From positions 880 through 64,879 of the forward strand of contig CAYMBZ010000003.1 in NCBI GenBank assembly GCA_964388835.1: a stretch of 64,000 nucleotides of DNA, read 5' to 3'. Made by a program: the position numbers and the translations under genes. Every line of letters begins with the position of its first letter. Positions within the stretch are counted from its first letter, which is position 1. The stretch is from an uncultured Lachnospiraceae bacterium. GTDB taxonomy: Bacteria; Bacillota; Clostridia; UBA1381. This document shows, piece by piece, positions 1-57,252 of the stretch. The notes under the pieces were generated by a model, which did not search any database, had not been told where the DNA came from, and saw only the letters and a list, made by a program, of their open reading frames with translations.

Positions 1-68
1 GTTGTCCTTATTCCGTCGCCGTCGTGCACGGCAAACCGCTTTATATCGCAAATCACTGCTTTGTTCAT
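1..68 (-). CDS. glycyl-radical enzyme activating enzyme (radical SAM), first 23 codons only; continues beyond the window edge
   Basis: Reverse-strand ATG at 68-66 reads MNKAVICDIKRFAVHDGDGIRTT. This resembles the N-terminal I-F-x-I-Q-R-[FY]-S-x-H-D-G-P-G-I-R-T signature of PFL2-type GRE activases. A GGGAG RBS lies just upstream, and the start is 13 nt after the stop of the preceding GRE gene. Confidence 0.6.
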   Translation of the reverse strand, partial: MNKAVICDIKRFAVHDGDGIRT

Positions 69-81
69 ACCGATTTCTCCC

Positions 82-2349
82 TTACTGTATATTTTCCGCT
101 CTTTTGATGTATGCATCCTGTTCTTTTTTATCCATATTGTTCCACAAAACATTCCAACCGCAGACTCGCACCTGCAGATTTTCATATCTTTCGGGGTGCT
201 TCTGCGCGTCATGCAGCACATCACTGTTAAAAATATTAAAATGCACCGATGCGCCGCCCTTAGACATATAAGTATTCAGCACGCTGTACAGAATATCTGT
301 TCCACCATCTTCGCAAACCACCGTAGGAAGTAACATAATGTCCAGACAGGCTCCGGAATCAGCAAGTGATAAATCCATTTCAGTCACGGAATTAATGAGC
401 GCCGTAACTCCGTTTTTGTCCGCTCCTGGAGTCGGAGAAGCATTTTTTGAGGTTTCATCGCCGTCTTTTCTTCCGTCCGGCGTTGCTTCGGTGCATTTCC
501 CCATTTCTATAAAAGCACGCGCGGAGTGCAGCTCATATTCATAATTTCCTCCGTGACAATTCTTTTTACCTGAAAAATACGACGAAAAAAACTGATGTAC
601 GGCGTTTGCATAATAATTTGTCAATTTATCGCCCGTTCCGTACTTATGTTTGCAGGAAAGCGCTTTCAATCGTAATTTTTCATAGCCATCCCAATTGCTG
701 TCAAGAGCTTTTTTTAGTTCGGCAAGCGTTGTCTGTTTCGTCTCGAACACGAGCTCATATACCGCCATCAGTGCATCCGCCGCGCTTGCCAATCCATTCA
801 GCAACACATCGCTTACATTCTTTATTCCCGAATCATTCGCATCGGTAAGCTTTTCAACACATTTTGGCACTGTAGCGGAATACAATATCATCGGATTAAC
901 TTCACTGATATACTGTTCTAATTCGTCGATATGTTTTGTACCGATTTCGAGAATGTGTTCGAATTGCGCAAGATACGCAGAATAAAATTCCTTAAAGGAC
1001 GTAAATTTTGTAACATCACCGGTTTGTATTCCAATTTTCGTTTCGGTTTGTTTGTCCACACCGTTATTAAATACCAGACTTACTGGCTTTAACGCATTGA
1101 ATGTGTTAAAGGATATGCCTATACAATCCGCTTTGGTGGTGTATTCATAGCATCCCTTTATAACCGAATCAACCGCAGCTTCATAATCCGCACCGTTTCT
1201 CATAAGCGATTTGATTATGATATCCTCATTGCAGAACACAATGCTCGTCGATCCGGATTTTATTATATCAAGTGCTTTCTTCACAAAGCTTTTCGGTGTA
1301 TCTTTGCTTATTTTTATTTGTATTTTCGGGTTGTAAATTCCCAGTGAATCGTACACGTCAAGTATCAGGTACGACAATTCGTTCACCTTCGTACTACCGT
1401 CAGTATTCGTTCCGGCAAGATAAAACGGCTGTCCCCAATAATTTCCCATTGCTGAAAACTGCATAAGGAAATATGCTATAAACCTTGTAAGTTCTTCTCT
1501 CGTAAAGGTGTTGTTTTCGATATCTCTTTTGAAAAACGGATATAACGTCGCATCGAGACCGTATCCCAAAGATCGAACCTGATAATGTTCCACGCTTTCG
1601 CTTATCATGAAATAAATGCAAATCATATGAAGCACATCATATGTGTTTTTCGGTGCACCCTCATACAGATTTTTTAGCGACGCCGAAATCGTTTCCGCTT
1701 TTGCGGATTTTTTCGTAAGAGAATATTCGTACAGCCTTTCAATAAACCTCAGAATCGCCTCGTATTCCGTTTTTACGGCATGATAAAAGATTTCCTGTTT
1801 TTCCGTAAGCTTATTTGCTTTTTTTAGCCTTTGGTATGCATCCTCGGCACGCTTTAATATTCCGCAAAATCCCAGTTCCGTCATCGATTCCCAATCCGGT
1901 ACGGTATGGTCAAAATCAAGACCAATCCACGCAGTGCCGGTTTTCTCCAGTGCAGAACGTTTTTCGTCACCCGATTTTTCGTCAGCCTTTTTTACAACTT
2001 CCCTGTACCATGGATTTATGGTGTATTTGTCGATAAGGCGACCCCACGAATACATCCCGATAAAATAATCGTTTTTATTGACGTCAATCCTTGTGTTATC
2101 CAGAACATACGCCACCATCTCAGCCTTAACTGCAGTATGCGGCTTATTTTTCGAAGCCTTTGAAATTTCGCAAAGTGCCGCATCGATTTCTTCATCCGTA
2201 AGTCCGGTCATTTCATCATAGTCATAGCCGTGATATGCCATTCTTTGAAAATCGTCAAATTCTTCATCGGTTTTGTGGTATTTATTTTCTATTTTTTTTC
2301 TGTCGTCTTCCGGCAGAAATGGAAATTTCCCGCTTATTCTTTCCCTCAT
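82..2349 (-). CDS. glycyl-radical enzyme, PFL2-like family (755 aa), substrate unknown
   Basis: Long ORF. The C-terminal glycyl-radical motif LQVRVCGWN sits about 25 aa from the end. A single catalytic Cys lies in VIKGCYEY (C-x-E arrangement, not the CC of pyruvate formate-lyase). The RBS GAGGTG is embedded in the 3' end of the upstream GRE. Confidence 0.85.
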   Translation of the reverse strand: MRERISGKFPFLPEDDRKKIENKYHKTDEEFDDFQRMAYHGYDYDEMTGLTDEEIDAALCEISKASKNKPHTAVKAEMVAYVLDNTRIDVNKNDYFIGMYSWGRLIDKYTINPWYREVVKKADEKSGDEKRSALEKTGTAWIGLDFDHTVPDWESMTELGFCGILKRAEDAYQRLKKANKLTEKQEIFYHAVKTEYEAILRFIERLYEYSLTKKSAKAETISASLKNLYEGAPKNTYDVLHMICIYFMISESVEHYQVRSLGYGLDATLYPFFKRDIENNTFTREELTRFIAYFLMQFSAMGNYWGQPFYLAGTNTDGSTKVNELSYLILDVYDSLGIYNPKIQIKISKDTPKSFVKKALDIIKSGSTSIVFCNEDIIIKSLMRNGADYEAAVDSVIKGCYEYTTKADCIGISFNTFNALKPVSLVFNNGVDKQTETKIGIQTGDVTKFTSFKEFYSAYLAQFEHILEIGTKHIDELEQYISEVNPMILYSATVPKCVEKLTDANDSGIKNVSDVLLNGLASAADALMAVYELVFETKQTTLAELKKALDSNWDGYEKLRLKALSCKHKYGTGDKLTNYYANAVHQFFSSYFSGKKNCHGGNYEYELHSARAFIEMGKCTEATPDGRKDGDETSKNASPTPGADKNGVTALINSVTEMDLSLADSGACLDIMLLPTVVCEDGGTDILYSVLNTYMSKGGASVHFNIFNSDVLHDAQKHPERYENLQVRVCGWNVLWNNMDKKEQDAYIKRAENIQ

Positions 2350-2352
2350 TTT

Positions 2353-4479
2353 TTACACCTCTAAGCTTTTTATTAAATTATTCTGCATTTCGATATCCAA
2401 ATCTGTAAAATACACATTCCAGCCGCACAAACGAACCTGTAGATTTTTATATTTTTCGGGATTTTTTTGTGCCGCTTTCAAGGTGTCAGGATTAACGACA
2501 TTAAAATGTACCGCAAATCCGCCTTTATTCAAATAGGTTTTCAAAACGCTTATCATGATTTCAATTCCTTCATCACACGAAACAGCTGTGGGGTGAAAAT
2601 GCAAATCAAGAACCGCGCCGTTGGGAGCATTGGTAAAATCAAATCTTGTTGCTGAATTTATCGCTCCGGTAACACCTTTTTTATCCATACCCACACTCGC
2701 GGAAAGATTTTTCGAAACCGGTTCTCCCGCAAATCTTCCGTCTGCGGAAGCACTGAGATTTTTTCCGGCTTCAATAATCCAATCTATTGAAAACATTCCC
2801 ATTCGGTATACACCATATCTTCCGTTTTGCTTTTGGTTGATACATTTTGACATATATTCTGTCAAATCACATGCCAAGCTATCGGCTTCATTGTCATTGT
2901 TACCGTATTTGGGATATTTGTCAGCCATTATTTTCCGTATGTTCTCTGCGCTGCTCCAATTATTTTTCAGAACCGCCTTTAATTTCGAAAGGGTTATTAT
3001 TTCATCTTCAAAAACGCCTTTTTTTATTGCCACAAGCTCATCGGTTACAGTTCCCAACCCATAAATGCATATTGATGAATTATTATATTTTGCTCCGCCG
3101 GAATATGCATCTTTTCCGCTTTCCATACAGCTTTCATATGTTGCTGACAGTATCGGTGCTTGAATAATATTTGAATATTGTTTTTCTACATTATTTATTT
3201 CCGATATGGCAATTTCTGCCCATGCTTTCAACTGCATTTTTACTGCATTATAAAATTCATCGAAAGTGCTGAATTCATTTCCGAAATCAATGCCGATACT
3301 TTTATCGGAAGCAACTCTCTTTCCGTTATTCAATACAGTTTCAACCGCCATAGGCATATTAATCCTACCGTTTAACGTACAGGGAATTTCTTTTCCGGAA
3401 GCGCATGGCTCATAACAACCGATTAAAGTATAATCTTCTGCGTCACATTCTTCGATTCCCGACTTTACAAGAGCTTTTTTTACGATATCGTCATTTACAA
3501 AAACAAAGCTGTTATTTCCGTTTCGAATCGACGTCATAATCATTTTATACGCTTTGTCTGTCATATTTTTCGAACACTTTACATGAATTTTCGGGTCCGG
3601 AATACCAAGCTTTTCGTATTCCTCCAAAATCAAATATGTCAATTCGTTTACATGCGTACATAAATTAAACGGAATATTGGCAAGTATTTGTCTCGAATTC
3701 CATTTAAACAAAAAGTATCTCAAAAGCTCTCGAACATCATCTTCACTGTAAATTCCTTCCTCTGTATCATACCTGTAGTAAGGGTACAAAATATCATCGA
3801 CAGCTCCGAGCGAGCGCAACGTATTTCCTTGCGTTAACTGCTGTGCAGAATAGTAAATAAAATACAATTGCATTGCTTCAGCCAGATTCTTTGGCTTACC
3901 CTTCAGCAAAGAAGAAAGGCTTTGAGCTGAAAACAAACTATTGACCGAATTTGTTTTTTTACATTCTTCACAAAGACGCTTTATATATATCAAAACACCC
4001 TCATAAGCATATTTAACGGATAAATAAAAATCTTCCTCTTTTTTTGATAAATTTATCTTTTTTAAACATTCTTCGGCATTTTCGAGTATACCGGTAAATC
4101 CAAGATTAAACACTCTGTTCCAATCAGGCATTGTGTGCCCGAAATCGGCAACGGCGACAAAAGCCCCCTCAGACGGAAATATTTTATCACTGTTGTCTTT
4201 TATGTATTTTTTATATTCTTCATCTATCAAAAAACACGGGCTGTACACTTCACTTGCCATATCGGAAAATATATCAGCCGGATTAATACACAATTCCGCT
4301 TTTTCAAAATAATGTTTTACGGCTTTTCCGAAACCTACCGATTTGGAATTTTCATTATGGTATATTTCTTTTATTTCTTCATATAACTCTTCCGCTTTTT
4401 CCTTGTTTGCGTTTTCATAAAACTTTGAGTATTGATTTTCTATTTTTTCTCTATTTTCGGTAAATTTTAAAATATTCAT
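2353..4479 (-). CDS. glycyl-radical enzyme paralog, PFL2-like family (708 aa), substrate unknown
   Basis: Long ORF with C-terminal LQVRLCGWN glycyl motif and a catalytic Cys in LIGCYEP. It is collinear with the neighbouring GRE (for example HTMPDWNRVFNLGFTGIL versus HTVPDWESMTELGFCGIL). Its stop is 3 nt from the next start. Confidence 0.85.
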   Translation of the reverse strand: MNILKFTENREKIENQYSKFYENANKEKAEELYEEIKEIYHNENSKSVGFGKAVKHYFEKAELCINPADIFSDMASEVYSPCFLIDEEYKKYIKDNSDKIFPSEGAFVAVADFGHTMPDWNRVFNLGFTGILENAEECLKKINLSKKEEDFYLSVKYAYEGVLIYIKRLCEECKKTNSVNSLFSAQSLSSLLKGKPKNLAEAMQLYFIYYSAQQLTQGNTLRSLGAVDDILYPYYRYDTEEGIYSEDDVRELLRYFLFKWNSRQILANIPFNLCTHVNELTYLILEEYEKLGIPDPKIHVKCSKNMTDKAYKMIMTSIRNGNNSFVFVNDDIVKKALVKSGIEECDAEDYTLIGCYEPCASGKEIPCTLNGRINMPMAVETVLNNGKRVASDKSIGIDFGNEFSTFDEFYNAVKMQLKAWAEIAISEINNVEKQYSNIIQAPILSATYESCMESGKDAYSGGAKYNNSSICIYGLGTVTDELVAIKKGVFEDEIITLSKLKAVLKNNWSSAENIRKIMADKYPKYGNNDNEADSLACDLTEYMSKCINQKQNGRYGVYRMGMFSIDWIIEAGKNLSASADGRFAGEPVSKNLSASVGMDKKGVTGAINSATRFDFTNAPNGAVLDLHFHPTAVSCDEGIEIMISVLKTYLNKGGFAVHFNVVNPDTLKAAQKNPEKYKNLQVRLCGWNVYFTDLDIEMQNNLIKSLEV

Positions 4480-4581
4480 TTTTTACTTCCTTTCAATACG
4501 GATTTGACTGTATTTTATATCAACAAATATTTTAATTCAATGGACAAAAAATAAAAAATGGATTTTTCGAACATAAACATC

Positions 4582-4610
4582 TTGACTTTCTTAAAAAAAT
4601 CAAGTATAGT
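4582..4610 (+). promoter_or_regulatory. candidate sigma-70-type promoter for the AraC regulator gene
   Basis: TTGACT (4582-4587), 17-nt spacer, TATAGT (4605-4610), ending 15 nt before the ATG at 4626. This would give a very short leader. Confidence 0.45.
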
Positions 4611-4625
4611 TGTTGTGGTGATATT

Positions 4626-5417
4626 ATGGAAGCTGATTTGACAATAGAAAGAATAATAAATGTATTCGACGGTGAATTTAAGCCCGGTATCATTCCGAAA
4701 AAAACAATCGGCAGGTACAGGGATTGCTTTGTGTGTTATTTATACGGAAAAACAAAGTATATATTTGATAATTATTCATTTACCGCAGCTCCGCAAAAGT
4801 TTATTTATTTGTCAAAAGACAGCAAATATGAAATGCATATACTTGAAAACAGTAAATTTGTTTGCGTTGATTTTGACTTTTGCACAATGCCTCGCTCTCA
4901 AAAAAGTACAGCGTTTAAATGCAATTCATTCGATATAAAAAGACAATTCCAAAAAATGCTGCATATTTGGAATAACAGAAGACCAGGCTATATTGCTCAG
5001 ATATTTTCATGTATATATAATGTTTATGCCGAAGCCATAAAAACAGAAAACAAATTATATTCGAAAAGTAGCCTTTTGGTTTCGGAAATAACAGAATATA
5101 TTTTGAATAATTATACCGATTCGGATTTTAGTATAAATGATATATCAACACATTTCGGAATTTCAGAGGTGCATTTAAGAAGGCTTATCGATCAATCGTT
5201 CTGCACTTCTCCTATAAAATATATAAATAATCTAAAGCTTGATAGAGCTAAAAATATGCTCAAAATCTCCAATTATTCGATAGCCGAAATAGCGCAAAGC
5301 TCGGGATTTGCAGATCCATATTATTTCAGCAGATTTTTCAAACAGCAGATGGGTGTCTCTCCGTCAGAATATAGATCGTCTGTTGACTTCGTTGTTAGCA
5401 CCACAAACACCGAATAA
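4626..5417 (+). CDS. AraC-family transcriptional regulator (263 aa), divergent from the GRE operon
   Basis: C-terminal double helix-turn-helix typical of AraC/XylS (ISTHFGISEVHLRRLIDQSF ... IAEIAQSSGFADPYYFSRFFKQQMGVSPSEYR). The N-terminal half looks like a cupin/ligand-binding domain. Confidence 0.85.
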   Translation: MEADLTIERIINVFDGEFKPGIIPKKTIGRYRDCFVCYLYGKTKYIFDNYSFTAAPQKFIYLSKDSKYEMHILENSKFVCVDFDFCTMPRSQKSTAFKCNSFDIKRQFQKMLHIWNNRRPGYIAQIFSCIYNVYAEAIKTENKLYSKSSLLVSEITEYILNNYTDSDFSINDISTHFGISEVHLRRLIDQSFCTSPIKYINNLKLDRAKNMLKISNYSIAEIAQSSGFADPYYFSRFFKQQMGVSPSEYRSSVDFVVSTTNTE

Positions 5418-5424
5418 AAAGTAA

Positions 5425-5682
5425 ATGGGAATTTTCCACAAAAAAACTTGTAATGATAATATCGGCACAACAATTTCCCTTGCCGATATTATTCCCGAAA
5501 AATACGGATATATCTTTGATGGTGGGTATTCAGATCCTCGAACAAAGGGAAATCGTGTAACGGAATTTACTTTCAATGGAAATGATGCCGTTTATGCGAA
5601 ATGGATTCCAAACGGATTAGAGCAAATTGAAGAGCAAGAAATAAAGACAACTCCGCTGACAACGGCTGAAATACTTGCCTAA
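5425..5682 (+). pseudogene. orphan fragment carrying a single Listeria-Bacteroides (Flg_new) repeat; probably a remnant of a surface protein gene
   Basis: PEKYGYIFDGGYSDPRTKGNRVTEFTFNGNDAVYAKW matches the GYTFxGWYTD...LYAKW repeat consensus. There is no signal peptide and no convincing RBS. It starts 8 nt after the AraC stop. Confidence 0.4.
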
Positions 5683-5948
5683 CGGAAAATGTTGTTAAAG
5701 ATTTGCACGCAACATTGACGGAAAACATAATTGTCGGAGGCATATACAGAAATCAGGAAGTTCGTATAAGCGGTGCAGGTTTTACACCGCCTGCGGGAAA
5801 TGAAATGTATATACAAATCAAAGGCTTTTATGAAGATATAAAAAGCAAGTCTGATTTAAACTCAATCGAATTTACAGCATGGATACATGCAGACTTTGTT
5901 GCAGATTTGGAAGAAAAACAGCTGAATGAATACTTAAATTTGATTTGA
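5670..5948 (+). pseudogene. truncated Fic/DOC-family fragment lacking the catalytic HxFx[DE]GNGR motif
   Basis: The open frame reads LTENVVKDLHATLTENIIVGGIYRNQEVRISGAGFTPPAGNEM...AWIHADFV. This resembles the Fic core up to the helix preceding the active-site loop and then diverges and stops. The N-terminus is missing as well. Confidence 0.45.
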
Positions 5949-5975
5949 ATATATATTCTTTACGAAAAATAAACA

Positions 5976-6016
5976 AAGCCGATAAACCGCTTGAAATAAG
6001 GGTTTATCGGCTTTTC
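5976..6016 (+). terminator. rho-independent terminator
   Basis: A perfect 13-bp stem, AAGCCGATAAACC (5976-5988) with GGTTTATCGGCTT (6001-6013), runs into a T tract. Confidence 0.7.
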
Positions 6017-6033
6017 CTTAAATTACTAATATT

Positions 6034-6108
6034 GGTGAAGCATTAGACCGATTGCAATCGGAATTAAAGCACAAGCCGGTAAAAGGAATAGGTATCAAAG
6101 AAAAATAA
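6034..6108 (+). repeat. 75-nt gene-tail relic, copy A (24 codons plus TAA: GEALDRLQSELKHKPVKGIGIKEK*)
   Basis: Matches 31999-32073 with 7 differences, all at third codon positions in this frame (6 synonymous, 1 Asp/Glu). A TAA at 6019-6021 closes the frame upstream and there is no start codon. Confidence 0.8.
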
Positions 6109-6129
6109 ATATCCGTACAACAAGAGCTG

Positions 6130-6176
6130 TTAATCGCATGATAAAAATTTCATCATGCGATTAATGGCTTTTTGTC
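6130..6176 (+). terminator. hairpin terminator following relic A
   Basis: 13-bp stem TTAATCGCATGAT (6130-6142) with ATCATGCGATTAA (6152-6164), followed by TGGCTTTTTG. Confidence 0.5.
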
Positions 6177-6705
6177 TTAAACTTGTTACACAGAAATGTT
6201 ATAATAAAATGTACCCCATATGTCACTTCGTTATATGCTATAATATACAAGAGTATATAGGAGGTTTTCTAACCGGACAAATTATTAAAACAAGTGATTT
6301 TATCAATGAAAATCATGTGATATAACGATTTCAACCCGGTAGAAAAACAAGCAAAAGCGGAAATGCTAGATTACCGACTTTGGCTCTCGAACCCGTTTTA
6401 TTGTGTGAAGCAAAATGGCAAAATAGTCACAAAAGATGCCGAAAGTGATTTTTCGTTTTTCAAATCGTCTTACCCGCAAAATTCAAGAGTGAATTTCCAT
6501 GGTCGAATAAAGGAGCAGGAGTAAGTACAACGATAAAATCTAAATTACCGAAGTGTCGGTATGTGTTTATAATGATAGTATCAACTATCATTATAAATTT
6601 CAAACATTCCAAATAAATTCCGCTGTTCCTGTTTTCATCTGTGGCGATACATTTAATCAAAGTATTGCGCACCGCACGTTTTCATTATGTGAAGATAGGG
6701 GGTGT

Positions 6706-8934
6706 TTAATCAATCCGTTTTTTTCTGTAATCGGCAGGTGTCATGCCGGTGACCGACTTAAATACTCTGTGAAACGTCTGCTTATTTGTAAAACCGACCA
6801 TTTCAAGGATTTGCTCAATTGTAAGTTCGGTGGTTTCCAAAAGGTCTTTTGCTCGGTCGATACGCAGATTATTCAAAAGCTGTTTAAAGGAATAGTCCGT
6901 ATTGCTCTGAATAAGCCTTGTAACGGTGCTCTGGCTTGTGCCGAACATATCCGCGAGCTGTTTTAAAGACATATCCTGTGAAGAACAGTTAGCCTTTATG
7001 TATGCGTATAGCTTGTCAAAATCCGTTACCGTTCGCTCGGAGGAGGTCAGGTAATCTACCAGCTCTTCGATATATGAGCGAACGCCGGATAAGGGCTGTG
7101 CGAGAAATTTATTGGCTATTTCAAAGTCAAGCATATCCTCCATGTATGGTATCTTATTAATCCGCATGTATTTCAATATTGTATTTAATATATAATTGTA
7201 CATTCTCTTTGTATCGCGCGGCGAAAGTGTCGGCTTATCGCTTAAAATATCATTTATTGCCGCCAAAATCGTATCTTTATCCAGTGTGGAAAGTGCGGAA
7301 TAAACGGTAGTTTCATCGGTTATTGTAAAGATAAAGGAGTCCTTGGAGCTGATATCTATAACCGGTGTTTCGTTAGGAGTATGATACGGAATAAATGAGT
7401 CCAGAGCCTCGGCGTGGGCTTGCTTCAGCCCCGGAATTCCGCGATATGCCTTACTCATTCCGATTGAAACCGTAATGTATTCAAAATCATTTGTAAGAAA
7501 GTACATAATGGAATTCAATACATCTTTTATCTCCTCATGCTGTTTTTCGTCCTTAAAATTCAGTATTATATTAAGCACATTGTTTTCCGCAGGGAGAACA
7601 TATGTTCTGAATTTTTCGGTAAACATATCGCACACAACGTTATAAAATCCCGATTTAATGGTTATGTATGATTGATTATCGAATTTATCATAAAAATTCG
7701 GTGCGGGAGACAATTGCAAAATGACGATGGAGAAAAGGTCGTATTCGAAAGAAAACGAGCCTTCAATTGCGTCAAAATCGGAATCTTTATTGTAAATTTC
7801 AAGGTCATTCAGTACATTTATAAGATATTTCTGCTGTGCATACGGCAGTGATTTTTGCAGTAAATCAATTTGAGATTTTGCTTTTTGCGCCAGTGATACA
7901 TTGTCATAAAGCATGTTTGAAGCAATGCTGTCCTCGCCCTTTAGCGAAGAATATATTTCGCTTATGGGCTTGAAAATGTTTTTTGTATTTCTGAAAGCTA
8001 TAAAAACGGCGCTGGATATCGCGATTATGCAAACTGCGATAATCAAAACGATAAAAAGCAAGATATCCTTGTAAATTTCCGAGGTGGGCGTTAATGCAAC
8101 ATATGTATATCCCAAAAGAGAGCGATTTGCGGTGCCGGTGGATACCAAGTAGCGGTCACGTGCCAAAACGGTTTTAAAGTTGGAATTAGGGCGTGACAGT
8201 ACGGTGTTGGCAAAATTATCCGATTGAGTTATTTTTGTGTCGTTATCATTGTTTAAGGAAAAGAATTCCTCAGTAAAATTGTTAAGTATAAAGTATTGCG
8301 TAGAATTGTTGTAATTGTAGTTGTTGAGCGAAATGATTGTAGTTAAATCCACGTTCAAAACGAAGTAACGCTTTTGATTTACCTTGTACACAATCGGAAT
8401 TGTGTTGTAAGTTTTATCGCCCGCATGCATTGCACATGGGGAGAGCATACGGAAGTTGTTGTTGGTGTAAATATACAACGATTGCCAGTAGTTTGCGTCG
8501 TAGGCGGAATATGTTAAATCATCGGAAAAATACTCCGGAATCGGAACACTGCCGCCGGAATGGTACACCACCCCGTTTGTTTGGTCAAGAAGAAATGTGG
8601 TTATAACATGGGGTGTTTCCGCAGAAAACTGTGCAAGTGAAGCAAAAAAATCCGGAGATTGGATTACGTCGTTGCCCTCTATAAACCTATCCGTTATAGG
8701 TTGGTGAACGTAAAATTTAACGGTACTTTTTAACATATCAATATTGTTTTCACAGTATGCGGATGCCGATTGCATATTTGAAACTGTGTTTTTGTTTGTT
8801 ATTGCAGTAAGTTTTGAAAATGAGGAAAAGCAAACATATACCGAAACAATACTGACGATTATTGCGGGTATCAATATTGACATAAGCAAAAAACTGAAAG
8901 TTTCATTCTTTTGTTTTTGTTTGAAAAATCTCAT
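6706..8934 (-). CDS. transmembrane one-component regulator with C-terminal AraC-type HTH (742 aa), locus 1
   Basis: Hydrophobic segment near residues 13-36 (FSFLLMSILIPAIIVSIVSVYVCF), then roughly 250 aa of predicted extracytoplasmic region. A second hydrophobic segment follows (LLFIVLIIAVCIIAISSAVFIAF), then a cytoplasmic region ending in an AraC double HTH (LKQLADMFGTSQSTVTRLIQ ... MVGFTNKQTFHRVFKSVTGMTPADYRK). No receiver or kinase motifs were seen. Confidence 0.8.
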   Translation of the reverse strand: MRFFKQKQKNETFSFLLMSILIPAIIVSIVSVYVCFSSFSKLTAITNKNTVSNMQSASAYCENNIDMLKSTVKFYVHQPITDRFIEGNDVIQSPDFFASLAQFSAETPHVITTFLLDQTNGVVYHSGGSVPIPEYFSDDLTYSAYDANYWQSLYIYTNNNFRMLSPCAMHAGDKTYNTIPIVYKVNQKRYFVLNVDLTTIISLNNYNYNNSTQYFILNNFTEEFFSLNNDNDTKITQSDNFANTVLSRPNSNFKTVLARDRYLVSTGTANRSLLGYTYVALTPTSEIYKDILLFIVLIIAVCIIAISSAVFIAFRNTKNIFKPISEIYSSLKGEDSIASNMLYDNVSLAQKAKSQIDLLQKSLPYAQQKYLINVLNDLEIYNKDSDFDAIEGSFSFEYDLFSIVILQLSPAPNFYDKFDNQSYITIKSGFYNVVCDMFTEKFRTYVLPAENNVLNIILNFKDEKQHEEIKDVLNSIMYFLTNDFEYITVSIGMSKAYRGIPGLKQAHAEALDSFIPYHTPNETPVIDISSKDSFIFTITDETTVYSALSTLDKDTILAAINDILSDKPTLSPRDTKRMYNYILNTILKYMRINKIPYMEDMLDFEIANKFLAQPLSGVRSYIEELVDYLTSSERTVTDFDKLYAYIKANCSSQDMSLKQLADMFGTSQSTVTRLIQSNTDYSFKQLLNNLRIDRAKDLLETTELTIEQILEMVGFTNKQTFHRVFKSVTGMTPADYRKKRID

Positions 8935-8959
8935 GATTTTTCTCTCCTTTTGGTATTTT

Positions 8960-9238
8960 TTGTTACTTTTTCGCCTATTTTTTTTTTTTTTTTGAAAAAA
9001 TTGTTACTCGTTGGTGAAAATTGCGAAGCTGGAAATTTTTATATCCACAAGAAATATTTTATAATAAAAAATGAAATTTGTCAACTTTTAAATCATTTTA
9101 AAAAGAAAAATATTGTTATTTTATGCAGATTCTACGGGCGTGATCACGCATTTATGCGATTTTCGTGCGGGTGTGTGAATAAAATGATACTCATGAAAAT
9201 TTTGTTACTTTACACATTAGATATGAGTGTGATATAGT
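8960..9238 (+). promoter_or_regulatory. locus 1 control region: four TTGTTA[CT]T direct repeats plus a candidate promoter
   Basis: TTGTTACT occurs at 8960, 9001 and 9202, and TTGTTATT at 9113. The last repeat abuts TTTACA (9209-9214), followed by an 18-nt spacer and TATAGT (9233-9238), about 60 nt upstream of the SBP start. Confidence 0.4.
8978..8993. repeat. T16 homopolymer in the divergent promoter region of locus 1
   Basis: Sixteen uninterrupted T residues counted directly, 44-59 nt upstream of the regulator start codon on the opposite strand. Confidence 0.95.
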
Positions 9239-9300
9239 TGAAAATGTAAAAAAACACTGTGCGGCGCTACGCACAAAGTCATAATAAGGAGAGCGAGTAT

Positions 9301-10704
9301 ATGAAAAAAAATTTAATGAAAACAATCGCTATGCTTCTGGGAGCTTCAATGGTTCTCGGAGGACTTGTAGGATGCGGAGAAAAGAAACAGCAAACGGACG
9401 GAAAGGTTACGATTTCACTTGCGGATTACTTTTCAGATCCGAAAATCAATCCTGAGGGATATGAAGCGCAAATGGAGGGTGTTAAAAGATTTAATGAAAT
9501 TTATCCGGATATCGTAATCGAGGACGGAAAATATTCTTTTGCCACAGATACATATATGGCAAAAGCTGAAGCGGGAACACTTCCGACCGTATATTACGTA
9601 CCGCTTACCGAGTGCGAGAAAATTAAGGATTTGGGATATGCGGCGGACCTTACAAAGTATTTTGAGGAAAACGGTTTTAAGGAAAACTTGAATGATTTGG
9701 CGCTTGACATAATTTCAAGAGACGGAAAAATGTATTTTGTTCCGGAGCAATTCTATTATGTGGGACTTTTCGTAAACATCGACCTTTATAAAAAGGCGGG
9801 CTTTGTGGCAGAGGACGGAACACTTTATCAGCCGACCGATTGGGAGGACCTTGCAAGAGTTGCAAAGGAAGTTAAGGCAAAAACCGGAGCTGACGGATAT
9901 GCAATGCCTACAAAAGGCAATCAAGGAGGCTGGAGATTTACACCGGTTGCATGGAGCTACGGAACCGTTTTTGAGGAAAAGAACAAGGACGGAAAATGGG
10001 AAGCTAAATTTGATACCGAAGAATGTGTAAACGCGGTTCAGTTTATAAGCGATCTTAAATGGAAGCACGATGCAATTCCGGCAAACACTTTGCTTGAAAA
10101 TGCGGACATATATCAGCAGTTTGCAGCCGGCAACATTGTAATGACGATGGGTGAATCAAGTATGATAGATAGAATGGTTTCGACATATGGTATGAGCAAA
10201 GATAACCTGGGCGTTTTGAGAATTCCGGCAGGTCCGGAGCGTGATGTATCGCTTCTCGGCGGTGCTGTACGCGTAATCGACAGAAACGCAACACCTGAGC
10301 AGATTGATGCGGCACTTAAATGGCTTGAATTCAACGGATATACATATAAAGTTGATGATGAAACCAAACAAAGTATTGAATCGGACTATCAAGTCAAAGA
10401 AAGTCAGAATCTTCCGATAGGTATCAGAGCTATGAGCCCGTGGAAGGACGGCAGTGAGTATGAGTTGTTCCATGACGAAATGATGGCAAAATATCAAAAT
10501 GTAAGCGATAAGAATGTTGAGAACTACAACAATACCGATAAGCTTGAGTTCCAGGTTGAGGAAGCGGTTGAAGCTCAATCGCTTTACAAAACATTTGACA
10601 ATGTTATTCAGGAATGCTTGACAAATAAGGATGCGGATATAAAGGCACTTGTTTCAAAGGCTGCTTCAGATTTCCAGAGTAATTATCTTGATTTTGCAGA
10701 ATAA
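9301..10704 (+). CDS. extracellular solute-binding lipoprotein of a carbohydrate ABC transporter (family 1 SBP)
   Basis: ATG at 9301 follows AAGGAGAG. The signal peptide carries the lipobox LVGC (MKKNLMKTIAMLLGASMVLGGLVGC). It has typical SBP length and is a paralog of 37941-39329. The track's earlier start at 9259 lacks an RBS. Confidence 0.85.
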   Translation: MKKNLMKTIAMLLGASMVLGGLVGCGEKKQQTDGKVTISLADYFSDPKINPEGYEAQMEGVKRFNEIYPDIVIEDGKYSFATDTYMAKAEAGTLPTVYYVPLTECEKIKDLGYAADLTKYFEENGFKENLNDLALDIISRDGKMYFVPEQFYYVGLFVNIDLYKKAGFVAEDGTLYQPTDWEDLARVAKEVKAKTGADGYAMPTKGNQGGWRFTPVAWSYGTVFEEKNKDGKWEAKFDTEECVNAVQFISDLKWKHDAIPANTLLENADIYQQFAAGNIVMTMGESSMIDRMVSTYGMSKDNLGVLRIPAGPERDVSLLGGAVRVIDRNATPEQIDAALKWLEFNGYTYKVDDETKQSIESDYQVKESQNLPIGIRAMSPWKDGSEYELFHDEMMAKYQNVSDKNVENYNNTDKLEFQVEEAVEAQSLYKTFDNVIQECLTNKDADIKALVSKAASDFQSNYLDFAE

Positions 10705-11655: not shown

Positions 11656-12540
11656 ATGAAAAAAATTGATTTTGCGTCAAAAGTTCATTACGGCGCTATA
11701 CGGCCTATTGATATGAAAAGCACAAAATACAAGGTTACATACGGAATACTTTCGCTGATAATGTTGCTGTATCTTGTAATAGTATTTCTGCCTGTTGTAT
11801 GGATGATGCTTTTCGGATTTAAAGATACGACCGAAATTTATGCGAGAGTTCAGACGTTTTTGCCGAAAGAGATAAAGCTTTCGAAAATGGGCGAAGTTTG
11901 GAATCAGCTGGAGCTTTACAGATATTATTTAAACACCTTTATAATGGCAATCGGAAATGTTTTGATGGATGTTGTTGTTTGCGGGCTTGCGGGCTACAGT
12001 CTATCACGCTTAAAACCGAGAGGACACGCGATTTATATGACGGCGGTAACAACGCTTATGCTTGTTCCGGCAACATGTGCCATGGTGCCAAACTACATTT
12101 TCTTTAAAGATATGGGCTTGCTTGACACCTATATACCGATGTGGCTTTTGATGGGAACAAATATGTTTGATATTCTCCTGTTTAAGTCAACCTTTGACGG
12201 TATATCCAAATCACTGATTGAGGCGGCAAAGATTGACGGTGCATCCGACCTTAGGATTTTCGTTAAAATTGTAGTACCGCTTTCAGTGCCGGTAATATGC
12301 ACCTGTGCGATATTTACATTTAATAACAGTATAGGTGATTTCTTCTGGCCCTACCTTATTATACAGGATGCGGCAAAAGTGCCGCTGGGCGTAAGAATGT
12401 TTGAAATCAGCAAATCAACTTTATCTATCGATAAGCAGATGATTGCTCTGATTTTCTCAATAATACCGCAGATGGTAGTGTTCATTCTGTTCCAGAAGCA
12501 GATTATGGGCGGAATAAACCTCGGCGGAGTTAAAGGATGA
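11656..12540 (+). CDS. carbohydrate ABC transporter permease (MalG/LplC-like)
   Basis: Multi-pass membrane protein with the EAA loop IEAAKIDGASDLRIFVKIVVP. Confidence 0.9.
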   Translation: MKKIDFASKVHYGAIRPIDMKSTKYKVTYGILSLIMLLYLVIVFLPVVWMMLFGFKDTTEIYARVQTFLPKEIKLSKMGEVWNQLELYRYYLNTFIMAIGNVLMDVVVCGLAGYSLSRLKPRGHAIYMTAVTTLMLVPATCAMVPNYIFFKDMGLLDTYIPMWLLMGTNMFDILLFKSTFDGISKSLIEAAKIDGASDLRIFVKIVVPLSVPVICTCAIFTFNNSIGDFFWPYLIIQDAAKVPLGVRMFEISKSTLSIDKQMIALIFSIIPQMVVFILFQKQIMGGINLGGVKG

Positions 12541-12553
12541 TAGGAGGAAGAAT

Positions 12554-15500
12554 ATGAAACGTGCACTAACTTTTATACTTGCGCTTTCCATGCTCCTGCA
12601 GTTCGGAAGCACGGCGATGGCGGCAAGAAAAACCGTTAAGGACGGTGAGCTTGAATATACCGTTTTGTGGGAGGAAGATTTTGATTCGGGCAAAAAGGGT
12701 CAGGATCCGTTCTCTTCATCAAACGGGGTTACGATAGAAGAGCATGATGTTGAGCATGGTAACAGTGTAAAGGTTGTCATTGAAGACAATATGTGGCCGA
12801 GATTCAGAAAACATTTTGATGAACCTGTAAAGGACGGTATTCTGTATGTTGGCTACAATATATTCAGAACAAATAAGGGCAGAACCAGTGACGATTACCT
12901 TGAATATCACGATTCAAGATGGGGTAACGGAATGTTTATCGGAACTCTTTTTAATAATGATGAGGGAAAAATCACATGGTATGCGGACATGCATATAGAT
13001 GCAATCAAAATTCCCGCTCCGGGAAACACTGTGCCGCAGACAAACGTGTGGCACAGAGTGGAGAGCTGGATTGACCTGAGTAACAGAAAAGCTACATATT
13101 ATATTGACGGTGAGTTTTTGGGTGAGACCACAATAACCGATGAGTGTACTCAGATATCCTCATATGAGAGAGGATATGAGGGAGGCTACGGAACCGGAAT
13201 AGAGTATGTAGACGATTACAAAATTCTTCACTTTGATGAAATAGGAAGAGAAGTGGACTTGGACTTTGTAATGGCAACTCCGGAATATCTTGAAGCTCCT
13301 GCGCTTTTGGAGGCTGATGCTGATGTTTTGGGTTACAGTTTTTACGATAAAAAGAACACAATCAATGTTGATGTAACCAACTTGACCACAAAGCAGGCTG
13401 ACGGAACGGTTTATCTTGACATAACGGATGAACGCGGAAATAAAGTGTTCTCGCAAGGCAAGAAAACGTCAATCCCGGCAAAGGAGAAAAAGAGTGAAGC
13501 GTTCACATTTTCTTTTAGAGAATACGGAAGCTATAATGTAAAGATGAGATTTGAAATGGAGGGGCGAAAGACAAGCCGTGCGGAAACAACCTTTATGTTT
13601 ATAAAAAAGGCTCCGCCGAATGAAACGCTGGGATATTCCGCTCATACCTATTGGGGCTACGGAACAGCAGAGCTTGAAAGAAAACAGCAGGTTCTGAAAA
13701 ATGCCGGATTCACATTTGAGCGAAGCGAAATTTTCTGGGTTTACTACGTAATGGCAGGATATAAGATGGATGCCGTTCAGCAGAACATCTTGGATATCCA
13801 GGAGAAAAACGGAATGAAGCCGCTTGTTCTTCTTGCCGGTTGGGGCGGAATGAGCGACCTTACCGAGGGTGAGGTTCCGCTTTCGGATAAATCACGAGAA
13901 AACTTCAGAAAATATGTATCGGGTGTAGCCAATGACCTTAAGGGCAAAGTTAAATACTATGAAGTGTTTAACGAAACTCATTTTACCTCAAACCCCGAAG
14001 CATACGTTTTGGCACAAAAGACAGCATACGAAGCAATTAAGGAAGCAGACCCGGAGGCACAGGTTCTCTGCGGAGCGACGGCGCATGTACCGGAAGATTG
14101 GATAGAAATGCTTCTTGAAAACGGCGCGGGCGAATATTTTGACGCATTCTCTGTACACCCGTACACAATTGAAAACTTCCCGGAAACGGGCGGAAGATAC
14201 GGCAGTGCGGAATACATGGTATTGCAGTGTAGAAAACTGCTTGACAAATACGGACTTCAGGATAAGGGAATTGTTATCACCGAGCTTTCATATACTGCGG
14301 CACCGTCTTATGCAACCGAAACTCAGCAGGGTGCTTTCGGCTTAAGACAGTATATGATGGTTCAGCCCCATGTTGAAAGCTTCACATGGTACAACGACCA
14401 GAACAAAACCGCGGCAGGCTCTGACGTTGTTGAGGCAAACTTCGGACTTATGCGTTCGTGGGCAGGTGACGGAATCGCGTATCAGGCAAAGCCGGCACTC
14501 CTTGCATGGGCAGGATTTAACAGCGTATTGGCAGGAGCGGAGCCTTTGGGTAAGGTTGAAGCAAGGGATGAAAATGTTTGGATTTACAAATTTAAAACCG
14601 AAGCCGGTAAGGACGTTATAGCGGTTTGGAATTCGGACAATCTCCAAAAGAGCGTTGCATTAAAGCTCGGCGCGGAAAGCGTAAATATGTACGACATGTA
14701 CGGAAATGCAACTACGATTTACTCAAATAACGGTGTTATTAATCTGGATATTTCCGAAAACATTACATATTTGGAGGGCAATTTCTCCGAGATTACCCAG
14801 GTTGACAACGAATTTTCCGTAAGGGAGAATTCAGTCGGTTTAATACGCGGTGAAGAATTTACGCTTCGTATCGACAAGCTCCCGGCGGGCGATGTGGAAA
14901 TTAAGGTAGATTTGCCGGATAACATCTTATTAAAGGCTATAGAAAACAATGAAATTGTTTTGGAATCGGGCGCTGAGGGATGTGAGAGCGAGAAGATAAG
15001 AGTAAATGCAATTGTGGGCGGTAAAAAGGTATATGCTCATGAGGTGGCGGTTGAATATATCGACCCGGTAACCTATAATTGCGATGTTCTCCCGTATAAC
15101 ACTCGCAGGTATCAAGCGGTTTTGGAAATTACCAACGAAAGAAATACGAATGTTTCGGCAGAGTTGGTACTGACAGAGCCGGAGAGTGTTGCCGGAAAGA
15201 GTTATAAAATCAAAACCATCACTTCGGGCGATACAAGAACGCTGAGAATTAATATTACACCGGAAGAAGCTTCGGAAAATGTTTTAAGACTCAGAGGAGA
15301 GATAAATGTAAAAGGTATTGCCGGAGAAGAAGTGGTTAATGTAAAAGTTGACAAAAATGTCGGTTGTTTGAAGTATGACCCGAAGAAGAAACCCGAGATT
15401 GACGGAGTGATTTCATCGGGTGAATGGGATACTTTCTTGCCGATGAGAATTAACAACAGCAGTATGGCTCAGCAAAAGGCGTGGAGAGGCATGGATGACC

Positions 15501-16003
15501 TCAGCGCACTTGTTCACACCATGTGTGATGATGACAATTTATACCTTGCGGTTGAGGTGACGGATGATATCTATTGTGACGATGCGGAGCCCGTCAGCGT
15601 ATGGAGCGTAGACAGTATTCAGATGGCGATTGCACTAAAACGCCAATCGGGAGCGCCAAGTACCGAAATCGGTCTGGGTATCGCAAGAGGGGAAGCAACG
15701 ATTCAGAGTTATCTTTCACAATCTATTGACGGTGGTGTATCACAAGTTCCGTTCTCGGAAAATGTAAAATACGCCGTTAAGCGATATGAAGAAGAGAAAA
15801 AGACGATTTATGAGCTTCAACTGCCATGGACGGATATCTATGCGGAGAAACCGAATATCGCGACTATGGATAAGGTTTACTTCTCAATCCTTGTAAACGA
15901 TGAGGACGGAAACGGAAGAGGATGGCTGGAATACTGCGGAGGTATCGGAACGTCAAAGAACCCTGAGCTGTTTATGGAACTTCCTATATATAGGATTAAA
16001 TAA
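12554..16003 (+). CDS. secreted multidomain glycoside hydrolase: LamG-like module, clan GH-A-like TIM barrel, Ig-like spacers, C-terminal CBM9-like domain (1149 aa)
   Basis: Signal peptide MKRALTFILALSMLLQFGSTAMA. Clan GH-A hallmarks are present: YYEVFNETHF (acid/base NE), FSVHPY, and IVITELSYT (nucleophile E). The C-terminus (about 15356-16003) reads EIDGVISSGEWD...DDDNLYLAVEVTDD...VDSIQMAI...LVNDEDGNGRGWLEY, typical of CBM9-like sugar-binding domains. Confidence 0.7.
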   Translation: MKRALTFILALSMLLQFGSTAMAARKTVKDGELEYTVLWEEDFDSGKKGQDPFSSSNGVTIEEHDVEHGNSVKVVIEDNMWPRFRKHFDEPVKDGILYVGYNIFRTNKGRTSDDYLEYHDSRWGNGMFIGTLFNNDEGKITWYADMHIDAIKIPAPGNTVPQTNVWHRVESWIDLSNRKATYYIDGEFLGETTITDECTQISSYERGYEGGYGTGIEYVDDYKILHFDEIGREVDLDFVMATPEYLEAPALLEADADVLGYSFYDKKNTINVDVTNLTTKQADGTVYLDITDERGNKVFSQGKKTSIPAKEKKSEAFTFSFREYGSYNVKMRFEMEGRKTSRAETTFMFIKKAPPNETLGYSAHTYWGYGTAELERKQQVLKNAGFTFERSEIFWVYYVMAGYKMDAVQQNILDIQEKNGMKPLVLLAGWGGMSDLTEGEVPLSDKSRENFRKYVSGVANDLKGKVKYYEVFNETHFTSNPEAYVLAQKTAYEAIKEADPEAQVLCGATAHVPEDWIEMLLENGAGEYFDAFSVHPYTIENFPETGGRYGSAEYMVLQCRKLLDKYGLQDKGIVITELSYTAAPSYATETQQGAFGLRQYMMVQPHVESFTWYNDQNKTAAGSDVVEANFGLMRSWAGDGIAYQAKPALLAWAGFNSVLAGAEPLGKVEARDENVWIYKFKTEAGKDVIAVWNSDNLQKSVALKLGAESVNMYDMYGNATTIYSNNGVINLDISENITYLEGNFSEITQVDNEFSVRENSVGLIRGEEFTLRIDKLPAGDVEIKVDLPDNILLKAIENNEIVLESGAEGCESEKIRVNAIVGGKKVYAHEVAVEYIDPVTYNCDVLPYNTRRYQAVLEITNERNTNVSAELVLTEPESVAGKSYKIKTITSGDTRTLRINITPEEASENVLRLRGEINVKGIAGEEVVNVKVDKNVGCLKYDPKKKPEIDGVISSGEWDTFLPMRINNSSMAQQKAWRGMDDLSALVHTMCDDDNLYLAVEVTDDIYCDDAEPVSVWSVDSIQMAIALKRQSGAPSTEIGLGIARGEATIQSYLSQSIDGGVSQVPFSENVKYAVKRYEEEKKTIYELQLPWTDIYAEKPNIATMDKVYFSILVNDEDGNGRGWLEYCGGIGTSKNPELFMELPIYRIK

Positions 16004-16019
16004 AATTGAATGTACGCTT

Positions 16020-16046
16020 CGAGCACGGCAATGGCGCCGTGCCTCG
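16020..16046 (+). other. intercistronic GC-rich stem-loop without T tract
   Basis: CGAGCACGGC pairs with GCCGTGC(C)TCG, about 10 bp with one bulge. Confidence 0.35.
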
Positions 16047-16079
16047 GAGGTATAAAAAATAAAAAAGGAGTAATTAAAA

Positions 16080-57203: not shown

Positions 57204-57242
57204 TATCGGGCGGCGAAATAAACGCCGCCCGATAAGTGTTTT
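57204..57242 (+). terminator. GC-rich hairpin (terminator or attenuator) before the cytoplasmic enzyme genes of locus 2
   Basis: Perfect 12-bp stem TATCGGGCGGCG (57204-57215) with CGCCGCCCGATA (57223-57234), followed by AGTGTTTT. Confidence 0.5.
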
Positions 57243-57252
57243 GGAGGAAGTT

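Follow-up and report, generated by a model that had tools for sequence, protein, structure and literature searches.

Organization of the cassette

We analyzed a 64-kb stretch of DNA from an uncultured Lachnospiraceae bacterium (64,000 nucleotides, positions 880 to 64,879 of contig CAYMBZ010000003.1; hereafter the window), at whose beginning lie two adjacent glycyl radical enzyme (GRE) genes, the start of a radical S-adenosylmethionine (SAM) glycyl-radical activase gene and a divergent AraC-family regulator gene. Based on open reading frame (ORF) and Pfam predictions, GRE1 occupies positions 4479..2353 of the minus strand and encodes 708 aa, and GRE2 occupies 2349..82 of the same strand and encodes 755 aa. 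The GRE1 stop codon (TAA, 2355-2353) is separated from the GRE2 start codon (ATG, 2349-2347) by a 3-nt spacer (aaa, 2352-2350), and a Shine-Dalgarno-like sequence for GRE2 (AGAGGTG, 2362-2356) lies within the final codons of GRE1. The GRE2 stop codon (TAA, 84-82) is followed by 13 nt, gggagaaatcggt, with a GGGAG at 81-77, and then by the ATG (68-66) of the activase gene (1..68, minus strand). The initial annotation had reported these protein sizes and spacings, and the ORFs and junction sequences bear it out. Its activase assignment holds for the start codon, but just 22 codons lie inside the window, whose edge cuts the gene. The N-terminal peptide they encode, MNKAVICDIKRFAVHDGDGIRTT, is 95% identical to the start of the full 291-aa activase of a homologous locus, L081. 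Neither a second activase gene nor a further GRE gene was found in the rest of the window, and the stretch from the GREs to the activase contains no small-subunit gene, either in the window or in L081.

The divergent AraC gene, also part of that first description, was located at 4626..5417 of the plus strand, 146 bp from GRE1. Its 263-aa product carries a C-terminal HTH_18/HTH_AraC domain preceded by about 170 aa without a Pfam match, and its ratio of nonsynonymous to synonymous substitution rates (dN/dS) against the L081 ortholog is 0.164. The 146-bp intergenic region (4480..4625), presumably the divergent promoter/operator region of the AraC gene and GRE1, is 88% identical between the window and L081, whereas synonymous sites of the flanking genes differ by 29-39% (pS 0.29-0.39); the region is more conserved than those sites. 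A stretch of about 34 nt is perfectly kept in both loci, and sigma-70-like hexamers were observed on both strands. An Rfam scan of positions 1-9300 revealed no riboswitch and no other RNA. We read the cassette as a putative AraC-controlled three-gene operon (GRE1, GRE2, activase) in which translation of GRE2 would be coupled to that of GRE1, with the regulatory control and the sharing of the activase predicted from gene order and sequence.

In agreement with their identification as GREs, a Pfam scan found both characteristic domains in each protein: PF02901 with 342 bits (E 1e-101) in GRE1 and 300 bits (E 4e-89) in GRE2, and PF01228 with 81 bits (E 9e-23) and 76 bits (E 4e-21), respectively, all far over the gathering cut-offs. 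Gly686 of GRE1, in RLCGWN (codon 2424-2422), and Gly731 of GRE2, in RVCGWN (codon 159-157), align with the radical Gly of the RVAGYS loop in CutC, HypD, glycerol dehydratase (GD) and propanediol dehydratase (PD). The catalytic Cys residues, Cys355 of GRE1 (IGCYEPC, codon 3417-3415) and Cys400 of GRE2 (KGCYEYT, codon 1152-1150), align with the CutC Cys, HypD Cys434, GD Cys433 and PD Cys438, and each protein has this single Cys, unlike the CC pair of pyruvate formate lyase (PFL). The single Cys in a G-C-Y-E context, with Tyr in place of Val, is thus as initially described. Both this Cys and the Glu of the C-x-E motif (Glu357 and Glu402) are 100% conserved, and His115 of GRE1 and His148 of GRE2, which align with GD His164 and PD His166, are 100% conserved in both of the clades defined below. 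In an alignment of 337 sequences that comprised clade A (n = 132), clade B (n = 152) and canonical eliminase-like outgroups, the Gly, Cys, Glu and His were each conserved in at least 98% of the members of every group. According to a 2026 GRE review, GD His164 is proposed to protonate the leaving hydroxyl and the Glu of the CXE motif serves as hydrogen-bond partner or base.

AlphaFold2 models of both proteins were obtained with high confidence (predicted local distance difference test scores of 93.9 for GRE1 and 92.5 for GRE2), and Foldseek matched them to more than 40 GRE chains with probability 1.00 and template modelling (TM) scores of 0.81-0.91, recovering the ten-stranded alpha/beta-barrel fold. 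Within that range HypD, GD, PD, CutC, HplG, YbiW and PflD all matched at 19-26% identity and none stood out as the nearest relative. Compared with the L081 orthologs, dN/dS was 0.139 for GRE1 and 0.093-0.096 for GRE2, values which indicate that both genes are under purifying selection and that neither appears to be decaying in the window genome.

The full L081 activase contains a CX3CX2C motif and two CX2CX2C motifs; it passes TIGR02494 (331.9 bits, cut-off 174.35) and no substrate-specific activase model. The Gly loops of the two GREs are nearly identical, QVRLCGWNVYF in GRE1 and QVRVCGWNVLW in GRE2. Since activase specificity tracks the Gly-loop sequence (2026 GRE review), this similarity fits activation of both enzymes by one activase, and we predict that a single activase serves both.

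The CGWN/CYE family and its two clades

GRE1 and GRE2 share 35% identity. Homolog searches with them retrieved at least 240 clusters (at 90% identity), labelled merely as hypothetical protein or pyruvate formate lyase family protein. R[VLI]CGWN was present in 228 of the 237 full-length homologs and GCYE in at least 228 of them. When 185,579 species genomes were scanned, the motifs of the family were present in all relatives at or above about 31% identity, and the next matches (30% or less) had RVAGYS and GCVE. Clustering separated a clade A (n = 132; RLCGWN; median length 710 aa), which includes GRE1, from a clade B (n = 152; RVCGWN; median length 748 aa), which includes GRE2.

The 337-sequence alignment showed which residues set the family apart (positions are given as GRE1/GRE2). 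At 222/259 the family has Arg where canonical GREs have Ile, Phe or Val; at 297/342, Lys instead of Ser; at 356/401, the Tyr between Cys and Glu, instead of a Val that is found in 100% of the canonical members; at 590-591/635-636, Lys-Asn instead of Asp-Gly; and at 625/670, Asp instead of Asn. The remaining differences fall in or near the Gly loop, namely Gln instead of Val at 681/726, Cys (95% in clade B) instead of Ala at 685/730, Trp instead of Tyr at 687/732 and Asn instead of Ser at 688/733. Tyr356/401, Arg222/259, Lys297/342, Lys590/635 and Asp625/670 are invariant (100%) throughout both clades and do not occur in canonical GREs. On this evidence GRE1 and GRE2 are assigned to two clades of one uncharacterized GRE family with its own active-site signature.

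The R-[VL]-C-G-W-N form of the Gly loop had been called uncommon in the initial annotation. It occurs in both proteins and is rare among characterized GREs, but it lies inside the accepted radical-Gly fingerprint RVXG[FWY] (PMC11528403): GRE2 matches it as RVCGW, and the RLCGW of GRE1 departs from it by a conservative V to L change, with Leu in 91% of clade A. The Trp after the radical Gly is therefore unusual among characterized GREs but not anomalous.

Literature searches on the CGWN, GCYE and RVCGW motifs found no account of this signature, and searches on tandem or paralogous GREs and on the operon structure of HpyG/HpzG gave nothing relevant beyond the 2026 GRE review, which has no such enzyme among those it lists and remarks that whole clades are without validation. 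What is new here is an uncharacterized two-clade GRE family with its own signature; another uncharacterized GRE clade is in itself unsurprising. The hosts, as given in the records, are uncultured Clostridia (Oscillospiraceae, Acutalibacteraceae and "Eubacteriales") and Victivallales. Isolate names of these hosts point, among other sources, to gut samples of human, ruminant and horse origin, and the metagenome sources of the family are human, ruminant, horse, other gut-associated and anaerobic.

Assignment to known subfamilies was judged by the curated NCBIfam cut-offs together with key residues. Scores for the PFL2/glycerol dehydratase subfamily model TIGR01774 were 341.8 bits for GRE1 and 283.8 for GRE2 (cut-off 678.2). 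For the other models the values, in the same order, were 282 and 226 against 1050 for CutC (TIGR04394), 335 and 299 against 1100 for HypD (NF043068), and 247 and 182 against 1109 for PRK09983, used for the YbiW/PflD comparison. The models of the sulfonate-cleaving GREs IslA/IseG, HpsG and HpfG (NF048009/NF048011), a group with an Arg/Gln/Arg sulfonate anchor, gave 305/275 bits with GRE1 and 250/229 with GRE2 (cut-off 1000), and those of PFL/TdcE, HPAD, IAD and PflD (TIGR01255, NF033715, NF033718, NF007437) were all far under their cut-offs. Glycerol/1,2-propanediol dehydratase was rejected at 22-26% identity, a level at which the alignment is approximate, with the GD-type substrate residues not matched. 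In pairwise HMMER alignments GD His281/Ser282 and Asp447, which we take to be the substrate-binding residues of that type, correspond to Asn219/Thr220 and Leu369 in GRE1 and to Tyr256/Gln257 and Phe414 in GRE2, and the residues at these positions are variable or different within the clades. Neither protein falls in a characterized GRE clade.

Gene order and regulation in related loci

Genomic context was taken from homologous loci of the family. The invariant unit in them pairs a divergent AraC gene with a GRE gene, usually accompanied by an activase gene; AraC was present in 27 of 38 loci and the activase in 26. In 11 lineages, the window among them, the clade-A gene is at least 51% identical to GRE1. 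The exact A-B-activase tandem of the window recurs in four other lineages at 57-85% identity in the clade-A gene, so that it is not unique to this genome: L081 (85% identical in A and 93% in B), L007 (78 and 87%), L002 (57 and 64%) and L089/L090 (72 and 87%). Other lineages have AraC, A, activase and B in this order (L091, with a B 71% identical to GRE2), AraC with B and a lactonase gene followed by AraC with A and the activase (L088), AraC with A beside a divergent AraC with B, an EamA gene and the activase (L082), or A and the activase alone (L001, L083); the contig of L092 ends just past the activase start. Altogether, a clade-B GRE lies within 5 kb of the GRE1 ortholog in 8 of the 11 lineages, in four layouts. 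A GRE2 ortholog (68% identity) stands alone with AraC and an activase in L085, in L086/L087 another lies beside a third GRE type that carries the sole activase of the locus, and in the distant members L004 and L021 two or three GREs are arrayed with a single activase. Judged by these gene orders, several GREs with one activase are a habit of the family and no peculiarity of the window genome.

The third GRE type of L086/L087 (11094-13085, minus strand; 663 aa) is convergent to the solo GRE2 ortholog, has the Gly loop RVWGWS and lacks a GC.E motif, and may represent another uncharacterized lineage without the C-x-E Glu. An irregular Gly loop was also noted in two Bacteroidales metagenome-assembled genomes (L038 and L043), where the motif expression returned RMDGHH within the last 90 residues of a 787-aa GRE (7536-9899, GCVETG); this may be an artefact of the expression or a diverged Gly loop.

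The junctions between the clade-A and clade-B genes bear on the proposal that the two chains form an obligate hetero-oligomer, a mixed A/B dimer or tetramer, maybe with one chain catalytic and the other structural or regulatory, in which coupled translation would give equal stoichiometry. Where the junctions were read, A and B are 3 nt apart in the window, 2 nt in L081 and 1 nt in L002 and overlap as TAATG in L007, and a GGAGG-type ribosome-binding site lies inside the final codons of A in L081, L002 and L007 as in the window. By gene coordinates the gap is 2 nt in L089/L090 too. Such a tight and maintained junction would suit an obligate complex, as would the fact that GREs dimerize through a conserved interface; yet the same review reports no hetero-dimeric GRE catalytic subunits (2026 GRE review). 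Moreover, Gly, Cys, Glu and His are kept in both chains under purifying selection, solo clades with an activase of their own are common (L083, L085 and L001 included), and the A-activase-B order of L091 and the separately regulated cassettes of L088 and L082 break the coupling. In L089/L090, finally, a premature stop interrupts B while A is intact. We consider an obligate hetero-oligomer very improbable.

The lesion just mentioned affects a GRE2 ortholog (87% identity; 8130-10379 in L089 and 3695-5944 in L090) in which an in-frame TAA replaces the Glu of the invariant NELSY motif and six residues (DSLGIY) are deleted, whereas the upstream GRE1 ortholog, the AraC gene and the activase gene are intact. 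The lesion is the same in two sequencing runs, SRR25404686 and SRR25404691. Seen in two samples, it could mean that the pair arose by a recent redundant duplication or by a cassette fusion, with one copy heading for loss, and the apparent mobility of the cassette, whose flanks differ between the window and L081, would agree with this. However, identity between the paralogs is only 35% and they come from two old clades with more than 130 sequences each, GRE1 and GRE2 of the window are full length with all catalytic residues and dN/dS of 0.09-0.14, and the clade-specific residues that map to the active site are 85-100% conserved. Redundancy and decay thus appear as an extremely improbable account of the pair.

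The regulators were compared in the same loci. Orthologs of the window AraC (46-86% identity) are divergent beside GRE1 orthologs and likewise beside solo GRE2 orthologs. The regulators at these two kinds of locus form one orthogroup, 46-55% identical to the window AraC, compared with only about 26-31% for AraC genes in other subgroups of clade B. That both clades are tied to this one orthogroup is in line with consecutive steps, another role put forward in the initial annotation, in which GRE-A and then GRE-B would act in one pathway, for instance in two radical dehydrations or deoxygenations that follow one another on a polyhydroxylated compound. The proximity of a clade-B GRE in 8 of the 11 lineages points in the same direction, and so does the L004 operon, which holds both clades, esterases, a lactonase, an EamA carrier and one activase. 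Against it, A and B are each found on their own with AraC and an activase (in L001, L083 and L085 and at many clade-B loci), A and B are under different AraC types, 28% identical, in L088 and L082, and the pseudogene B of L089/L090 sits beside an intact A. Consecutive steps are therefore, in our judgement, unlikely though by no means negligible.

What flanks the cassette is not conserved: spoIIIA/spoIIR genes occupy the place in L081 where the window has regulators and glycan loci, and since the flanks differ the cassette appears to be mobile. In L085, a serine recombinase, a relaxase and a NikA-like gene (12497-16977) lie just downstream of the solo AraC/GRE2-type/activase cassette; together with the unconserved flanks of the window and L081, these genes hint that the cassette travels on mobile elements. 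Right after the AraC gene of the window there are two small ORFs of 85 and 81 aa (5425-5682 and 5703-5948) with no significant family match, the first giving a weak, sub-threshold match to a Listeria-Bacteroides repeat; they are possibly remnants of a larger surface-protein gene.

Beyond these ORFs the window contains two paralogous loci of about 25 kb each that resemble polysaccharide-utilization loci (6706-35284 and 35375-59262). Each has a divergent AraC-type regulator of about 745 aa (6706-8934 and 35375-37633, both on the minus strand), an ABC solute-binding protein with two permeases, SLH-anchored proteins, a CBM9 protein of about 1140 aa, Big_5 proteins and several proteins of 680-1155 aa without a Pfam match. 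In addition, the first locus encodes rhamnosidase domains, one GH78-like (30387-31994) and one GH106-like (32753-35284), and the second a beta-helix protein (57241-59262). The rhamnosidase-like enzymes invoked in the initial annotation are thus present in the window, but about 26-30 kb from the cassette. A link of the cassette to the rhamnosidase and SLH loci was rejected on account of the differing flanks in L081. The derived idea that the GREs act on 1,2-propanediol from rhamnose or fucose is not supported, as the neighbors are not conserved and the GD/PD residues at Asp447 and His281/Ser282 are absent.

Proposed chemistry and comparison with characterized enzymes

Positions at least 85% conserved within each clade but occupied differently in the two seem to map to segments lining the substrate pocket of solved GREs. 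Phe563/Ile565 of clade A and His608/Ala610 of clade B align with CutC Leu698/Ile700 and GD Tyr640/Ser642, and Ala267/Asn268 of clade A and Trp305/Gly306 of clade B are placed beside CutC Phe389 and Phe395. We take CutC Leu698/Ile700 and Phe389 and GD Tyr640/Ser642 to be substrate-pocket contact positions. Of the CutC and GD contacts, only CutC Tyr208, Glu491 and Thr502 are corroborated by mutant entries in the PDB. The strand of Phe563/Ile565 probably also corresponds to that of IslA Arg678/Val680, residues given in the 2026 GRE review. Further clade-specific differences are Pro358 against Tyr403 immediately past the C-x-E motif, His299 against Gln344, and Val623 against Cys668 adjoining the family-specific Asp. 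The shared Cys/Glu/His machinery combined with divergent pocket residues suggests two radical 1,2-eliminases or ring-opening isomerases, and because the paralogs differ at pocket-lining positions they most likely act on different, related substrates.

We propose that the AraC-controlled operon encodes two radical 1,2-eliminases, whose substrates are related but not the same, and one common activase, a reading to which, taken as a whole, we give about an even chance. The single radical SAM activase would install the glycyl radical on both GRE1 (Gly686) and GRE2 (Gly731), and the radical would pass to the single Cys of each enzyme (Cys355, Cys400). The resulting thiyl radical would abstract a hydrogen from an OH-bearing carbon of the substrate, the Glu of the C-Y-E motif (Glu357, Glu402) would deprotonate this OH and the conserved His (His115, His148) would protonate the vicinal leaving group, leading to a 1,2-elimination of the dehydration type or a related ring-opening isomerization. 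GRE1 and GRE2 would do this on different but related hydroxylated small molecules, such as stereoisomers or homologues, sensed by the same type of AraC regulator. Of the three roles first considered for the pair, related substrates is hence the one we favor, ahead of consecutive steps; the obligate hetero-oligomer fares poorly in view of the solo clades, the separate AraC control and the nonsense codon in B.

Several points weigh against this proposal. The active-site mapping depends on pairwise HMMER alignments at 20-26% identity and in part on CutC, GD and IslA residues taken to be substrate contacts. Sequence and context identified no substrate for GRE1 or GRE2, and the minimal cassette of the window has no transporter and no downstream pathway gene. 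The activase is truncated in the window and its use by both enzymes is a prediction. One AraC orthogroup beside both clades could equally mean a single shared substrate or pathway. Finally, the invariant Tyr and the family-only Arg222, Lys297, Lys590 and Asp625 could signal a chemistry unlike that of any known eliminase.

This last point amounts to a distinct explanation, that Tyr356/401, Arg222/259, Lys297/342, Lys590/635 and Asp625/670 build a different active site for a different class of reaction. The five residues are invariant in both clades and absent from canonical GREs, both proteins are far under every curated GRE cut-off (for TIGR01774, 342 and 284 bits against 678), and GRE1 and GRE2 are equidistant from all solved GREs. 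Nevertheless, the Cys/Glu/His triad of the dehydratases is intact, the activase, with its two auxiliary-cluster motifs, belongs to the eliminase type, and no positive evidence of another chemistry was encountered, all of which makes such a departure improbable.

For the two related eliminases that we favor, the nature of the substrates may be approached through the neighbors of distant family members. The genes recurring there between the GRE and the activase encode lactonases of the SMP-30/regucalcin type (six loci, with regucalcin as the best match in the PDB, E 4e-26), SGNH/GDSL-like hydrolases (seven loci), SASA-type carbohydrate esterases (three) and EamA carriers (six), and the member in L084 is inside an operon of glycoside hydrolase, UxuA, SDR and ROK genes. 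The recurrence of the lactonase, the esterases, EamA and the L084 operon with the family would point to a lactone, ester or hydroxy acid derived from a sugar, or to a polyol, rather than to propanediol, as the substrate. One might speculate further that the CGWN/CYE family is a new functional class of GREs for the radical dehydration or ring opening of sugar-derived hydroxy acids, lactones or de-esterified polyols, with A and B as a stereo- or regio-complementary pair under one activase and one AraC sensor; in this full form the idea is rather unlikely to be correct. If it is true, Clostridia and Victivallales of gut and rumen would have a widespread, so far unrecognized route of anaerobic catabolism.

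So far, newly assigned GRE clades have each revealed a distinct anaerobic reaction, several of them with a bearing on host health; examples are choline's conversion into trimethylamine, the dehydration of hydroxyproline, the release of sulfite from isethionate and the ring opening of anhydro-sugars. The CGWN/CYE family, with at least 240 clusters, sits under every curated annotation threshold and is a well-defined and tractable target for enzyme discovery. The operon of the window offers a compact, self-contained test system of one sensor, two enzymes and one activase, which could serve to ask what the substrates are, how one activase recognizes two partners of 35% identity through the CGWN loop and what effect the Tyr has on the radical chemistry.

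Among the known systems, the C-O-cleaving eliminases GD (1R8W), PD (5I2A/5I2G, 9RCO), HypD (6VXC), HpyG (8ID1) and HpzG (8IOF) resemble GRE1 and GRE2 in their fold (TM 0.81-0.91), the single Cys in C-x-E, the His at the position of GD His164/PD His166 and the C-terminal Gly loop. Their activases are similar to that of L081, with about 290 aa and two extra ferredoxin-type Cys motifs. Yet they are only 19-26% identical to GRE1 and GRE2, which are about 50-130 residues shorter, mainly at the N-terminus, have Tyr for Val between Cys and Glu and CGWN for AGYS, and carry the family-only Arg, Lys and Asp; moreover, the cassette has no microcompartment genes and no aldehyde dehydrogenase gene. CutC (5FAU, 5A0U, 9F3W) is the best sequence match of GRE1 (E 9e-78) and shares the C-x-E motif and a Thr aligned with CutC Thr502. 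However, a His occupies the position of CutC Asp216, presumably a choline-binding residue that contacts the trimethylammonium group, and the positions of Tyr208 and of what we take to be Tyr506 are not kept.

Escherichia coli YbiW and PflD (8ID7, 8ID0), each of which has its own activase, and the pair HpyG/HpzG are paralogous CXE GREs for stereoisomeric substrates and as such a precedent for GRE1 and GRE2. YbiW and PflD take the sugar-derived C2 epimers AG6P and AM6P, and HpyG and HpzG the L- and D-forms of N-methyl-hydroxyproline (2026 GRE review). They differ from GRE1 and GRE2 in sequence (19-24% identity), and there is no phosphosugar context at the window cassette. A precedent for the sharing of an activase is E. 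coli PflA, which activates both PflB and TdcE, enzymes with the same Gly loop, RVSGYAV (2026 GRE review), as compared with R[LV]CGWNV in GRE1 and GRE2; PflB and TdcE are close paralogs encoded at separate loci, whereas GRE1 and GRE2 are 35% identical and adjacent in one predicted operon. The gene order itself has a counterpart in L052 (metagenome chromosome OW818648.1, 7105-13412), where canonical GREs of 845 and 872 aa and one 330-aa activase are encoded in tandem. These GREs, likewise uncharacterized, differ from GRE1 and GRE2 in their motifs (RIAGYS/GCVEPC and RVAGYS/GCVEPD), so that the layout of two GREs with one activase is not restricted to the CGWN family.

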